The position numbers and the translations under genes were made by a program. The notes below the pieces were generated by a model, which was given only the letters and a program-made list of their open reading frames with translations, was not told where the DNA came from and ran no database searches. A stretch of DNA of 12,996 nucleotides, taken from Candidatus Aenigmatarchaeota archaeon. Lineage in GTDB: Archaea > Aenigmatarchaeota > Aenigmatarchaeia > QMZP01. The stretch is taken from assembly GCA_039091855.1 (NCBI GenBank), contig JAWCLA010000020.1:1-12996 (forward strand), in the 5' to 3' direction. Shown here one piece after another: positions 2,060-12,996 of the stretch (positions within the stretch are counted from its first letter, which is position 1; each line of letters opens with the position of its first letter).

Positions 2060-2943
2060 GGCTGTGTAGAAACCATCCGTAAAAGCCCATAATAACCTTC
2101 CTGTGCACGTTGCAAATAGCACACATCAAGACGACCTCATTGCATTGGTGAACCAATGACCTTGACTGAAGCCATGAGCCCATCAACCGTTTCCTCACGC
2201 TGTTAACAGTTTCTACCAACGATCTCTTGTGATATATGGTGTTATCAAAATGTCTTAGCATTTTCTTCCTGTACGAGCCGTATGTCTTGCCGTCTCTTCT
2301 CTTCCTTACCGGTATCATAGGTTTGCTGCCCAATTGCTTGACAAGGCGGTGGTTAGTCGCTGTAATGACCCTTATCAGCTGTTATGTATGCAGGTTTGGC
2401 AAGGCTGGCTGACTGCCTTGCCAGCCATTCAAAGTCTGTGTTGTCATTTCTTGGACCGAGCCTTGTTTTCACTGCCAGTATGGACTGGTTAACTGTGCAC
2501 ACGGCTAAGCTTGTCTTTATGTAGGTCTTCCTTTCCTGTTCCCCATGCATCCTTTGTGCATAGTATACGCTTGCATGGGTACTGGAGTAGCCGGTTGAGT
2601 CCATGGCGACTATGGTTTGCTCGCTATGAAAAAGGCAAACAGTTCGAACAAAAACAGCATAAATAACAGATGAATTGGAGCGAAGGAAGAATTTGTTAAC
2701 TGTTGTGAAGTGAGGTGGTTGGTGAATGCCAATTGCCTGCCTGAGTTCAGGCATCAGTTCAAGCAGCTCAATTATCCGTCTGTAATCTGTTTTTGTGTAT
2801 TTCATCAGGCACCATATAGCCGCTAATTGATACTGCTTATAGGTGTGCCTGGACTTCCTGCATGAATATGCTGGGAGAGAGCGGGAGAGAACCGAACATA
2901 AACGGACAGTTAGCTTTATTATCCGATTGACCTTATTATTCAT
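2060..2943 (-). pseudogene. IS5-family DDE transposase, split by a frameshift near 2355
   Basis: The N-part (2943-2353) has PHFTTV, AMDSTGY and ITADKG. The C-part continues in the +1 frame (NHRLVKQLGSKPMIPVRK...YHKRSLVETVNS..KR). The junction reads GAC-T-AAC, and the usual DKGYDS motif appears as DKGHYS. Confidence 0.88.
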
Positions 2944-8922: not shown

Positions 8923-9105
8923 GAATTGTCACAAGGCGAAGGTTAAGTGGAAGTTCCGAAGGAACTTCTCCGTCAAGTCGGAAAGGTAAACAATAATAAT
9001 GTGAATTGTCACAAGGCGAAGGTTAAGTGGAAGTTCCGAAGGAACTTCTCCGTCAAGTCGGAAAGGTAAACAATAATAATGTGAATTGTCACAAGGCGAA
9101 GGTTA
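8923..9105. repeat. Exact tandem repeat: two 80-bp units plus a 23-bp partial third unit
   Basis: Units start at 8923, 9003 and 9083 (GAATTGTCACAAGGCGAAGGTTA...). The units are identical, each full unit contains the hairpin GAAGTTCC-GAA-GGAACTTC, and the last base is the A of the rps8e ATG. Confidence 0.97.
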
Positions 9106-9503
9106 TGGTAAGATGGCACTTACGCTCGAACAGGACACCTACCGGGGCATTGGTAAAGAGGAGCAGCAAGAAAAAAAGGTTTCAAAGAGGCTCTGAGTTT
9201 CTGGAGACTAAAATAGGCAAAAAAAGGACAAAAACAAAGCGATGTAGGGGTGGAAACCAAAAAACCAAGCTTCTTTCTATTGATTTTGCAAATGTTGCTG
9301 ACCCAAAGACAGGAAGAATGCAAAAGGCAAAGATAATCTCTGTCCAGGAAAATCCTGCAAACCCGCACTACATAAGAAGGAACATCATAACAAAGGGCGC
9401 TGTGATTAAAACTGATATGGGTCTGGCAAAGGTTACATCAAGGCCAGGACAGCACGGGACTGTTAATGCAGTTCTTATAGAAGAAAAGAAAGCCTCAAAG
9501 TGA
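9105..9503 (+). CDS. rps8e: 30S ribosomal protein S8e
   Basis: RS.R.PTG, R.RGGN.K.KL, ANV.DP.TG, ENPANPHY.RRNIITKGAVI.T..G.A.VTSRPGQ.G.VNAVL. The true start is ATG 9105; the longer ORF is read-through of the repeat. Confidence 0.97.
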   Translation: MVRWHLRSNRTPTGALVKRSSKKKRFQRGSEFLETKIGKKRTKTKRCRGGNQKTKLLSIDFANVADPKTGRMQKAKIISVQENPANPHYIRRNIITKGAVIKTDMGLAKVTSRPGQHGTVNAVLIEEKKASK

Positions 9504-10633: not shown

Positions 10634-10843
10634 ACATCCTCCGGATAATAATTTGATAATATGTCAGAAATATTTTTCGGGTATTTAAATCAAGCCTGTC
10701 TTTGCTTCTTTCCTGCCTCAAAAATCCTTTGCCACAAAAATGTATGCCTTTCCCGTATGGAATTGGTATTTCCGATTCTGTTAACTTATATAAGTATTAA
10801 CAATATAGGGTAATTAATCTTCTACTTAAAAGAGCTCTAAAGC

Positions 10844-11653
10844 CTAAAGCAGATTTGCAAGTTTCTTTATGTCTTTATTTGCGACGTGAGTGTAGATCTG
10901 CGTAGTCTTCAAATCTTTATGGCCTAATAACTGCTGAATGTATCGAATATCAGCACCAGATTCTAATAGATGGGTCGCAAAGCTGTGCCTTAGCGTATGT
11001 GGTGTCACATTCTTTTTGATTCCTGCTTTATTATGAGCGGATTTTACGATTTGCTGAATTGTCCGCTTGTTGTATTTTCTCTCTCTTTGAGAAATAAATA
11101 TTGAACCTTTTTCCTTAGTTCCGAAAATCCTCAAAGTTTCTATTAATCTTTTATGAAGAAATACGACCCTTTCTTTATCTCCTTTCGCCGTTTTTAGATG
11201 TATTATCTCTCTGTCAAAATCAATGTCGTCCCATTTAAGATTTCTTACTTCATCCAGACGAAGCCCTGCATAATAAAGAAACATAATAACAAGCTTGTGC
11301 TTCAAATTGTTTGTAGCTTCTATCATCTTGTTTATTTCTTCTTTGCTCAAAACTAAAGGCAGTTTCAACGACTTTCTCGCGAGGGGAAGTTTTTCCTCAA
11401 ATCGTGTATTTAGTACGTTTTCATAAAAGAACTTCAGAGCAAAGTATGCAGACCTCATTGTTGATTTGCTTTTAGTTGTGTAGGATAACAGAAATTCTCT
11501 TGGTGTTTTGCCTGAAGACAGAAATTCTTTAACTATGAAAATATATGATTTGCCTGTTTGATAGGAATATCTTCTGAGTTTTATTTCCTCAATCAGCTTG
11601 CCAATAAGTTTATACTTTTCTTCTGGAGAATAGATTTTACTATTATCTGCCAT
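10844..11653 (-). CDS. Tyrosine recombinase, integron-integrase/Xer-like but without the IntI-specific insertion
   Basis: Intact catalytic set: GLR (R), KG.K (K), HTLRH (H-x-x-R), LLGH (H), IYTH (Y). The N-terminal LRRYSYQT..SY and KLPLVLS resemble integron integrases. Only 269 aa. Confidence 0.93.
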   Translation of the reverse strand: MADNSKIYSPEEKYKLIGKLIEEIKLRRYSYQTGKSYIFIVKEFLSSGKTPREFLLSYTTKSKSTMRSAYFALKFFYENVLNTRFEEKLPLARKSLKLPLVLSKEEINKMIEATNNLKHKLVIMFLYYAGLRLDEVRNLKWDDIDFDREIIHLKTAKGDKERVVFLHKRLIETLRIFGTKEKGSIFISQRERKYNKRTIQQIVKSAHNKAGIKKNVTPHTLRHSFATHLLESGADIRYIQQLLGHKDLKTTQIYTHVANKDIKKLANLL

Positions 11654-11683
11654 ACATTTTATTATGGAAACTAACTTTATAAA

Positions 11684-11750
11684 ATCTCGCTTTTTATACT
11701 CATATATACTATAAAACGAATATTTATCTCGCTTAATAGTTGTTCAACGC
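11684..11750 (+). other. Putative attI-like primary recombination site with crossover G|TT at 11742/11743
   Basis: Lies just upstream of the divergent recombinase. GTTCAAC core at 11742-11748; direct repeats ATCTCGCTT at 11684-11692 and 11726-11734. Confidence 0.55.
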
Positions 11751-11774
11751 AATGCTCACTACGGGGCTCCAAAA

Positions 11775-11788
11775 GAAAAATTTAAATA
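11775..11788 (+). promoter_or_regulatory. BRE/TATA promoter of the HNH gene (probably leaderless)
   Basis: GAAAAA-TTTAAATA ending 23 nt before ATG 11812. Confidence 0.6.
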
Positions 11789-11811
11789 CAAACTAGTAAT
11801 AATGAATTATT

Positions 11812-12216
11812 ATGCCAAGAAATCCATTTGCGATTGATATAAAACCTGTTGATATTTGGGGAACTTCAAAAAAATCTAAAAAGAGGAAAAATATTTCTTT
11901 TACAGAAAAAGCAATTTTATGGGAAAAAAATAAATCACACATTTGTCATATCTGCAGACAGAAAATACATTCTTTAACTGAAGCAGAAGTTGACCATATA
12001 AGAGCACATTCTAAAGGTGGTCAGACTGTGAGTTGGGCACACCGTGCGTGTAATAGATTAAAAGGTAAAAAATCGCTTTCTGAAATTCATAGAAGATTAG
12101 GAATTAAAACTAAGTCTAAGAAAAGAAAATCTACTAGAAAGAAATCAAAAGGGAATTATTGGGTTAATCCTATAACAGGTAGAAAAGAAAAGGTCCAACC
12201 TTTATTTCGACTTTAA
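11812..12216 (+). CDS. HNH endonuclease with a basic C-terminal tail
   Basis: CHIC, EVDHI...SKGG and AHRACNRLKG; zinc-binding HNH pattern. Confidence 0.9.
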   Translation: MPRNPFAIDIKPVDIWGTSKKSKKRKNISFTEKAILWEKNKSHICHICRQKIHSLTEAEVDHIRAHSKGGQTVSWAHRACNRLKGKKSLSEIHRRLGIKTKSKKRKSTRKKSKGNYWVNPITGRKEKVQPLFRL

Positions 12217-12220
12217 ACAA

Positions 12221-12352
12221 CTAAAACTCGATTCGTGTCCTTCTTTTAGGTCTTCTTCTTGCTTTGAAACTAACTCTTTGACCACTACTTGTTCTAAAGG
12301 ACACAGGTCTCTTAGTTTTAGTTTTCTTTCTTCTTGCTAAAAACGATGGCAT
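12221..12352 (-). CDS. Small, highly basic 43-aa protein; absent from the ORF track
   Basis: Manual translation MPSFLARRKKTKTKRPVSFRTSSGQRVSFKARRRPKRRTRIEF (17 of 43 residues K/R, one acidic). It fills the gap between the HNH stop and the hairpin region and is preceded on the - strand by GCAAAA-TTTTTATA about 22 nt upstream. Confidence 0.65.
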   Translation of the reverse strand: MPSFLARRKKTKTKRPVSFRTSSGQRVSFKARRRPKRRTRIEF

Positions 12353-12457
12353 AATAATCAATAGAAACTTATTCTATAAAAATTTTGCGGAGCCCCTCCG
12401 TTCGCACTTCTTCGTCGCTTCGCTCCTCGACCACATTGCATTCTCACTTCGTTCGGG

Positions 12458-12547
12458 GCGTTGAACAGGCATTTTACGGCTCACTTCGTTGCACTCGTTC
12501 GCCAAAATTTCCCTGCGGGAAACTTCGTAAAATGCCATATGTTCATT
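12458..12547 (+). other. attC-like hairpin recombination site
   Basis: TGAACA (12462-12467) pairs with TGTTCA (12540-12545). GGCATTTTACG (12468-12478) pairs perfectly with CGTAAAATGCC (12526-12536), leaving a 3-nt ATA bulge. Inner hairpin TTTCCC-TGC-GGGAAA (12508-12522). The AAC...GTT triplets are conserved as in attC R''/R'. Confidence 0.7.
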
Positions 12548-12627
12548 TCAATCGCTCGGGCGCCTACGGTTCACGCTTCAAAATCAATTTAAACATTTGT
12601 TAAACATAAAATAAATTATCTGATTTA

Positions 12628-12996
12628 TTATGATTGTAGAATGCTTCTAAACTGAGATGAATTTTCCCATTCTGGAATTGTTATAAGATATCTACTAACA
12701 AAATGTTTTAATGCTTTTCTTCGGGTTCCAGCAGACGTTAATGTAGATTTCTCCCACAAATCTCTTCCAGAACTATCTTTTTCGATTAAGAAATCTTTAA
12801 GATTGGGAAATATTTTTTTGAAATTATCTTTTGTAAGTGGAAGATTCCTATATTCAAATTCTTTTTTGATATATGGTAATAATTCAATAAATATAGATAA
12901 CCCATAGTGACTTTTTATGAGAGAAGTTTTGTATTTTTTAGTTGGCCAAAGGTTACCAGAACATTCTTGAATTGCAGCTAAAAAATCATTAAGAAC
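12628..12996 (-). CDS. 3' part of a gene whose start is outside the window (cassette 2 cargo), possibly a DGQHR/DndB-like protein
   Basis: Open frame of 122 codons: VLNDFLAAIQECSGNLWPTKKYKTSLIKSHYGLSIFIELLPYI...RSILQS*. The 'N.F.AI....W....SLI...GL..FI.LL' pattern recalls DGQHR-domain C-termini. The ORF is solid; the family call is weak. Confidence 0.6.
   Translation of the reverse strand, partial: VLNDFLAAIQECSGNLWPTKKYKTSLIKSHYGLSIFIELLPYIKKEFEYRNLPLTKDNFKKIFPNLKDFLIEKDSSGRDLWEKSTLTSAGTRRKALKHFVSRYLITIPEWENSSQFRSILQS

Follow-up and report, generated by a model that had tools for sequence, protein, structure and literature searches.

A candidate cassette recombination site with strand-biased GNA motifs beside a XerA-type recombinase in a DPANN archaeon

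In integrons, the closest described system, a recombinase gene diverges from a docking site and from a row of short accessory-gene cassettes in one orientation, each of which ends in an inverted repeat that is conserved in structure, variable in sequence and furnished with ..AAC and GTT.. boxes. Junctions lie after GTT, the bottom strand is the favoured one and the cassettes are promoterless. Integron recombination is thought to require an IntI-specific domain that reads extrahelical bases of the folded attC site. In archaea, 75 genomes, Nanoarchaeota among them, yielded 539 attC sites and six IntI genes according to passages of Ghaly et al. (2022, PMC9668308), which describe the additional domain as present in the archaeal IntIs; members of the site family described below may be among those 539 sites or CALINs. 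For bacteria, passages of Bouvier et al. (2009, PMC2727003) describe a bottom-strand 5'-GAA terminal loop in some attC sites, a change of GAA to TTC that reduced IntI1 binding to attCaadA1 in vitro, and a GAA/TTC swap in the terminal loop of the VCR site that altered recombination just ~2-fold; extrahelical bases are given there as the main strand determinant. The weak VCR loop effect and the strand control by extrahelical bases, as those passages present them, count against strand choice by loop motifs.

Two further systems bear comparison. Xer/dif recombination and the elements exploiting it use an Xer-family recombinase without accessory domains, as the present locus does. Phage CTX integrates through a folded single strand mimicking dif, and a folded single strand is also the substrate that we propose here. 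Unlike these exploiters, the present system has arrays of many small cassettes and a dedicated site family, without phage or plasmid genomes. The other comparison is with the d(GCGNAGC) mini-hairpins of Hirao and co-workers, which have exact counterparts on the bottom strand of our site in GCGAAGC at 12417-12423 and C-GCA-G at 12513-12517. Parts of one source (PMC13037366) describe such hairpins as extraordinarily stable and poorly bound by SSB, and give a melting temperature of 39 C for the RNA mini-hairpin r(GCGAAAGC) against ~82 C where GCGAAAGC is part of a DNA fragment; parts of another (PMC3201870) state that the closing pair strongly governs d(GNA) loop stability. Known natural cases of d(C-GNA-G) are priming signals and phage N4 promoters. 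For substrates of site-specific recombination, a role of such hairpins has been raised in connection with single attC loops only, and a full-text literature search found, Asgard mobile-element papers aside, no description of cassette arrays that depend on a XerA-type recombinase.

We analysed a window of 12,996 bases, which is a whole contig (C13) of a DPANN archaeon. The island at 12385-12575 would be the recombination site that ends the first (HNH) cassette of an integron-like platform, composed of a XerA-type recombinase, an attI-like docking site and cassettes that each carry a ~200-nt multi-helix site. That the element is a cassette recombination site we regard as very probable. As in integrons, the recombinase is divergent from the docking site and from a co-oriented array of short accessory-gene cassettes, each cassette ends in an inverted repeat kept by structure and variable in sequence, which mostly carries AAC and GTT and in a minority of copies the full integron boxes, junctions come after GTT, and the bottom strand appears to be favoured. 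Unlike integrons, the recombinase is without the IntI-specific domain around patch III, the sites are ~200 nt long with five or six helices and an L stem without conserved extrahelical bases, a cassette-private outer helix of 8-14 bp spans the cassette, and the cassettes appear to carry TATA-like boxes of their own.

Contig, recombinase and cassettes

The source genome comprises 689 kb in 38 contigs, is 84% complete and has a G+C content of 42%. Archaeal genes recognised on the contig with Pfam include those for TBP, a CDC48-type ATPase and a PIN-ATPase-KH protein. The final 2.2 kb of the contig consist of the recombinase gene (- strand), the HNH gene (+ strand), the island and an ORF (- strand) running off the end; G+C over this stretch is 0.27-0.38, the island excepted, which reaches 0.48 and stands above its low-GC flanks. 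Elsewhere on the contig, a 196-aa ORF at 2353-2943 (- strand) has a partial DDE_Tnp_1 match (2.1e-5, profile positions 2-87 of 200) and is, on the strength of that match, probably a truncated IS transposase. A perfect tandem repeat at 8923-9105 (period 80, 2.3 copies, 100% identical) overlaps the 5' end of the ORF at 9027-9503, and its repeat unit contains the hairpin GGAAGTTC-CGAAG-GAACTTCC, which is capped by C-GAA-G on the + strand.

Matches to window 10800-12996 were present in 12 sequencing runs (X1-X12) of hot-spring or groundwater metagenomes from six studies; none of the runs listed was of RNA, which bears on expression in neither direction. More than half of the sampled words of this region occurred in just one of the 12 runs, and contig evidence was counted solely for its covered parts. 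In three runs the recombinase portion was covered far deeper than the cassettes, as is expected where relatives share the gene and not the cassettes.

The recombinase gene (10844-11653, - strand) encodes a XerA-type tyrosine recombinase of 269 aa and is divergent from the cassette array. Its product matches Pfam Phage_integrase at 2.5e-45; the best NCBIfam model is XerA_Arch, with 212 bits, just under the equivalog cut-off of 220, and the integron-integrase model TIGR02249, whose cut-off is 265 bits, matches in two pieces with a score of 196. The closest structure matches are the XerA structures 5hxy and 4a8e, to which the alignment is unbroken. Against VchIntIA (2a3v), query residues 174-190 stand opposite chain residues 177-238, which leaves ~45 residues of the IntI-specific domain without a counterpart; the remark in the sequence-only reading that the I2 insertion is missing was thus correct.

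This recombinase was also searched for in the 91 genomes of the DPANN order that were searched for sites. An ortholog of 43-88% identity adjoins and diverges from the first site of the array in ten genomes (G058, G015, G064, G031, G011, G055, G071, G054, G077 and G003) and, according to a sensitive search, in G083 too, for a total of 11 genomes besides the window. In three more (G030, G012 and G038) the contig with the recombinase gene also carries sites, arranged differently. The 3.5 kb adjacent to the 69% ortholog on G041:C2 contained neither a site nor the docking word. The enzyme is the sole full-length homolog found in the 84%-complete source genome, where the next match has 27% identity; most relatives likewise have one full-length copy, and G043 has two homologs (86% and 43%).

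Cassette 1 encodes a small HNH endonuclease of 134 aa (11812-12216, + strand; Pfam HNH 2.2e-4, HNH_5 7.8e-5). A 1652-nt contig of run X2, from a separate study, carries this HNH cassette (11733-12474; 23 differences, 5 gaps) behind a different upstream sequence. The gene of cassette 2 lies in reverse orientation (12628-12996, - strand), is cut by the contig end and had no hits in Pfam or NCBIfam. In the relatives, many sites form co-oriented arrays with a spacing of 0.3-2.5 kb. The array on G058:C9 has nine co-oriented sites, with ORFs mostly in the direction of the sites, and the cassette products of G058:C9 and G015:C17 include GNAT, NUDIX, a GmrSD-type nuclease, DUF2085, a cupin and a DUF2283/DUF4258 pair. 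Between one and three accessory genes make up a cassette, with none for replication or transfer. In locus L002 (G055:C41), positions 1-55 and 1066-1120 form a 55-nt direct repeat over the 5' ends of two adjacent cassette genes, both on the - strand and with a site between them; the two genes have their N-terminal coding sequence in common.

Docking site, junctions and outer helix

The attI-like docking site (11726-11753, + strand) reads ATCTCGCTTAATAG-T-TGTT-C-AACG-CAAT, with the junction after GTT (11742-11744). In aligned relatives it takes the form ..TCGCTTAATAG-N-TGTTA-NNNN-CAAT, ~80-92 nt from the recombinase start codon, and 7 of 67 loci contain the exact word TTAATAGNTGTTA, invariably beside the recombinase gene. 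Upstream of it, beside a TATA-like box, lies the first copy of a ATCTCGCTT direct repeat (11684-11692, + strand), and the word ..TCGCTTTTT is kept in the recombinase-proximal regions of all seven loci compared. This repeat is a possible accessory recombinase-binding or promoter element.

Metagenome contigs with at least 88% likeness to the window support the position of the junctions. Three of them, two from X3 and one from X5, leave the window match after 11744, and a contig of X5 matches to 12543 and then diverges. Beyond both breakpoints the diverged sequence has the form A-NNNN-CAAT. Both breakpoints come directly after GTT, which is the integron crossover position, and the register of the outer helix, P0, agrees. 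At this level of likeness the contigs speak to the position and mobility of the junctions among relatives, not to the chemistry.

P0 is formed by two segments at the two ends of the cassette. Its 3' strand for cassette 1 (11754-11770, + strand) reads GCTCAC-TAC-GGGGCTCC and contains the CTACG at 11759, and its 5' strand (12389-12405, + strand) reads GGAGCCCC-TCC-GTTCGC and contains the CTCCG at 12396. The duplex between them is calculated at -15.3 kcal/mol, against -9.5 for pairing with the site's own downstream tail. The same arrangement is found in the arrays, where a segment 45-110 nt upstream of a site core complements the tail following the preceding site. There the mean duplex energy is -14.3 kcal/mol, against -8.4 with the own tail and -7.9 with others, and in 21 of 28 neighbouring pairs no tail pairs better than the preceding one. 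P0 begins directly after the (C/A)AAT that follows GTTA-NNNN, ends directly before a conserved ACTTC(T)TCG, has 8-14 bp, is private to its cassette and spans it. As the left end of a cassette complements the 5' end of the cassette's own site, the full P0-closed structure would require a looped-out or circular cassette. By analogy with the arrays, the segment 12553-12575 (+ strand; CGCTCGGGCGCC-TAC-GGTTCACGC, containing the CTACG at 12564) would be the P0 3' strand for the next cassette, its partner lying beyond the contig end. A helix between 12391-12396 (GCCCC) and 12455-12459 (GGGGC) was considered and dropped, since the 5' segment pairs with the tail of the preceding cassette.

TATA-like boxes (TTTAAATA, TTTATA) occur at 11783-11792 of the window and in the post-site tails of locus L054, 10-30 nt past the P0 3' strand and ~20-30 nt ahead of the cassette start codons. 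These positions may point to a promoter for each cassette and a near-leaderless transcript.

Architecture of the site family

BLAST returned partial matches to the site in 15 of 61 genomes, several per genome and many near contig ends. The latter had prompted the idea of an rRNA fragment, which was dropped for want of any rRNA match; repeated sites explain the location, and the contigs of G083 and G043 break 0.1-0.7 kb past the recombinase gene, as expected at repeats. An alignment of 19 copies revealed one common plan. In the window, P0 is followed by a conserved 5' domain (12406-12459, + strand), defined by that alignment, in the order ACTTCTTCG, H1 (12417-12423), CTCGACCACATTGCATTCTC (12426-12445), H2 (A-C-TTC-G-T, 12446-12452) and TCGGGGC. 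In other copies, H1 and H2 are hairpins of 4-6 bp with different stems and an identical TTC loop.

The attC-like core (12460-12552, + strand) is defined by covariation and scores 101.7 bits with the covariance model R1. Its R stem, GAACA/TGTTC, pairs 12463-12467 with 12540-12544, and its L stem of 11 bp pairs 12468-12478 with 12526-12536; an ATA bulge (12537-12539) separates the two on the 3' side. Within L lie the inner hairpin Ha (12478-12503), followed by CAAAATT, and Hb (12505-12525; AAATTTCCC-TGC-GGGAAACTT), followed by AACTTCG. The junction comes after GTT (12541-12543) and is followed by C-ATTT-CAAT. The covariation model covers the 101 most conserved positions (window 12455-12555), that is, the R stem (..AACA with TGTT..), the L stem of 9-11 bp and the first inner hairpin. 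Compensatory changes keep these stems: 80.2% of cells were paired, compared with 64.3% in shuffles, of which none of 500 reached the observed value, and with 27-45% in slid controls.

R1 matched at E<=0.001 in 41 of the 91 genomes, and 83 matches were counted in 43 sources. The source genome holds three good copies. The two outside the window, on G000:C36 (25983-26085, - strand, 51 bits) and G000:C33 (18326-18418, - strand, 48 bits), lie away from any recombinase gene found. Across the family a site measures ~200 nt and comprises five or six helices, with conserved words at the junctions. Over the 83 matches the L stem shows zero insert columns and hence no conserved extrahelical base; apart from a bulge of 3-4 nt between L' and R', no asymmetry is conserved. 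Of 80 copies, 76 contain AAC and 70 contain GTT, but just 26 have the full RYYYAAC and 20 the full GTTRRRY. Rfam gave no match at E<=1 in the window and none at gathering score in 19 related loci, and ARAGORN found no tRNA or tmRNA.

Strand bias and its interpretation

The sequence-only reading had drawn attention to a one-sided cluster of CTNCG motifs, read on the bottom strand as C-GNA-G triloops that would nucleate folding or set strand choice, perhaps taking the place of extrahelical-base readout. Its positions are exact: CTNCG occurs on the + strand at 12396, 12410, 12418, 12447, 12484, 12513, 12523 and 12564, and at 11759, a motif search placed the opposite orientation (CTNCG on the - strand) at 12388 alone, and the CTCACTTCGTT direct repeat is present at 12443 and 12480. 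Within 12389-12570 there are eight CTNCG and no CGNAG, against 1.52 +/- 1.14 and 0.19 in dinucleotide-preserving shuffles of this segment (n=2000), none of which reached eight. The genome-wide count that was suggested as a control gave 1159 CTNCG and 1169 CGNAG, an unbiased background.

The triloop reading itself held for two or three motifs of this copy and failed for the rest. The motif at 12418 (GC-TTC-GC) caps H1, here a 2-bp hairpin, and that at 12513 (CCC-TGC-GGG, with an A/T extension) caps Hb; those at 12447 and 12484 are at best 2-bp mini-hairpins (A-C-TTC-G-T), and those at 12410 and 12523 lie inside the conserved words ACTTC(T)TCG (ACTTCTTCG) and AACTTCG. The CTCCG at 12396 stands opposite the CTACG at 11759, and the two form a 3x3 internal loop within the long-range helix P0, which on the bottom strand is GNA x GNA; a 2x2 T.C/C.T mismatch in P0 becomes tandem G.A there. 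By analogy, the motif at 12564 would be the same loop half as 11759, for the partner in the next cassette. Four motifs of this copy fall in a repeated ACTTCG word.

The bias extends to the other copies of the site. We sampled 78 of the 83 model matches, dropping three duplicate places (two locus ids) and two cut by contig ends, and extended each by 85 nt upstream and 45 nt downstream. The 78 copies contain 285 CTNCG and 30 CGNAG, whereas 200 dinucleotide shuffles gave 85 +/- 8.7 and 46 +/- 6.7; CTNCG outnumbers CGNAG in 75 copies, equals it in two and is the rarer in one, with the proviso that the copies are kin and the counts not independent events. Because the search model includes AACTTCG, which guarantees about one CTNCG per copy, a separate count was restricted to perfect hairpins with 3-nt loops. 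Among 98 such hairpins with stems of at least 5 bp, the top-strand loop was TNC in 60 and GNA in 5 (C-TTC-G 31, T-TGC-A 14, C-TAC-G 7), and among 165 with stems of at least 4 bp the figures were 80 and 9. Counted as distinct combinations of a 4-bp stem and a loop, the numbers are 47 and 9, with TTC on 29 stems and GAA on four, so the triloops are not copies of one hairpin. On the bottom strand C-GAA-G is the commonest cap across the family, and on that strand the family loops follow the d(C-GNA-G) mini-hairpin rule in their sequence. A UUCG tetraloop in top-strand RNA was rejected as an explanation, because the register of the stems leaves loops of 3 nt and few TTCG tetraloops occur.

Mismatches and wobbles lean the same way. 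In the model stems, top-strand T.C/C.T mismatches number 88, compared with 16 G.A/A.G, and pyrimidine-pyrimidine mismatches number 131, compared with 41 purine-purine; the bottom strand thus reads G.A, often in tandem and at fixed positions of Ha and P0. Top-strand A.C, which is G.T on the bottom strand, occurs 75 times and top-strand G.T 37 times, and an A.C at the base of Hb is conserved. When both strands were folded with DNA parameters, the bottom strand was the more stable in 70 of 75 copies, by a mean of 3.0 kcal/mol. With RNA parameters it was the more stable in 66 of 75, by a mean of 9.25 kcal/mol, and for this copy the RNA folds were -64 (z -2.1) for the bottom and -51 (z -1.2) for the top strand; as both parameter sets favour the bottom strand, the energies cannot tell DNA from RNA. 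The top strand of the elements is pyrimidine-rich (C 4667, G 3612), so part of the loop bias could be general skew.

The bottom strand is, in our estimation, probably the strand built to fold. The earlier proposal of a folded bottom-strand DNA substrate gains from the strand bias, the loops, the mismatches, the wobbles and the fold energies across the family, and the attC-like reading gains from the finding of a cassette-array site beside a recombinase without the extra domain of IntI. We somewhat favour the further step, that the site acts as single-stranded DNA and that the motifs bias strand choice; the asymmetric bulge of 3-4 nt between the R and L stems is an alternative and would serve equally well as a strand mark. 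Under the proposed mechanism the site would work as folded bottom-strand single-stranded DNA, on the strand that integrons use too. That strand presents GNA triloops closed by C-G, GNA x GNA or tandem G.A loops and a conserved G.T wobble, and the top strand has at the same places pyrimidine loops and pyrimidine-pyrimidine or A.C mismatches. The purine motifs would speed folding of the bottom strand and help it to resist re-annealing and single-strand-binding protein, and a faster and steadier bottom fold would in turn bias which strand the recombinase meets.

Three other explanations were weighed against this one. The site could be recognised as duplex, or as a transient cruciform, with the motifs being by-products of skew or words for double-strand DNA-binding proteins (ACTTCG, TTGCA) and not folding nuclei. 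In the archaea studied, XerA does act on dif as a duplex. The elements have a skew of C>G, this copy contains ACTTCG four times, two positions of the family hold that word almost without variation, and sequence conservation of the attI-like partner is what a duplex site would show. Such a reading is nevertheless unlikely to our mind, because the stems vary freely with pairing kept, which a sequence-reading dimer would forbid, the TTC loop is constant over 29 stems compared with four for GAA, shuffles that preserve the skew yield 85 CTNCG and not 285, and the T.C/C.T mismatches cluster at fixed helix positions. We hold it somewhat less probable still that the element is, also or instead, a structured RNA, either a non-coding RNA of the bottom strand or a terminator or stabiliser at the 3' end of cassette transcripts. 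Its many helices, covariation, conserved junctions and G+C of 0.48 in low-GC surroundings would suit an RNA, RNA parameters favour the bottom strand by the larger mean, 9.25 kcal/mol, and co-oriented cassette genes would transcribe through the site. That read-through would produce the top strand, however, which is the poorer folder; Rfam is without a match in the window or the 19 related loci, the loops are 3-nt GNA closed by C-G and not GNRA or UNCG tetraloops, and the RNA counterpart of the mini-hairpin melted far below the DNA form in the part of PMC13037366 cited above. A P0 split across a whole cassette and junctions inside the element are features of a recombination site, not of an RNA gene. 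The recombination-platform context, the internal junctions, the split P0 and the mini-hairpin loop rule together favour DNA.

About as improbable as an RNA are IMEX-like mobile elements that exploit a host resolvase, integrating one after another at dif beside xerA through folded single strands as Vibrio phage CTX does, with the platform as a by-product. For these speaks that the XerA-type enzyme is the sole full-length homolog found, as in most relatives. Against them speak cassettes with 1-3 accessory genes and without replication or transfer genes, and one conserved site family in fixed orientation relative to the recombinase gene; the two homologs of G043 (86% and 43%) may do so too, and the identity of the docking site with dif is a supposition in a genome of 38 contigs.

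To the described systems the present analysis adds a motif set of GNA loops and G.A mismatches that is one-sided across a whole site family, and its link to the missing domain. On the folded bottom-strand reading, the design of the sites would let the bottom strand alone fold well, and P0 would complete the fold when the cassette is looped out or circular. More tentatively, these loci may represent widespread, XerA-run platforms for gene capture in ultra-small archaea, in which the top strand is unable to fold, strand choice is thermodynamic and not made by protein readout, and P0 switches between the stored and the mobile state. If the inference holds, a tyrosine recombinase would have a second way to strand-selectivity on folded DNA, the exchange of accessory and defence genes among DPANN archaea with very small genomes would be explained, and recombination tools would gain compact, thermostable folded-DNA sites.
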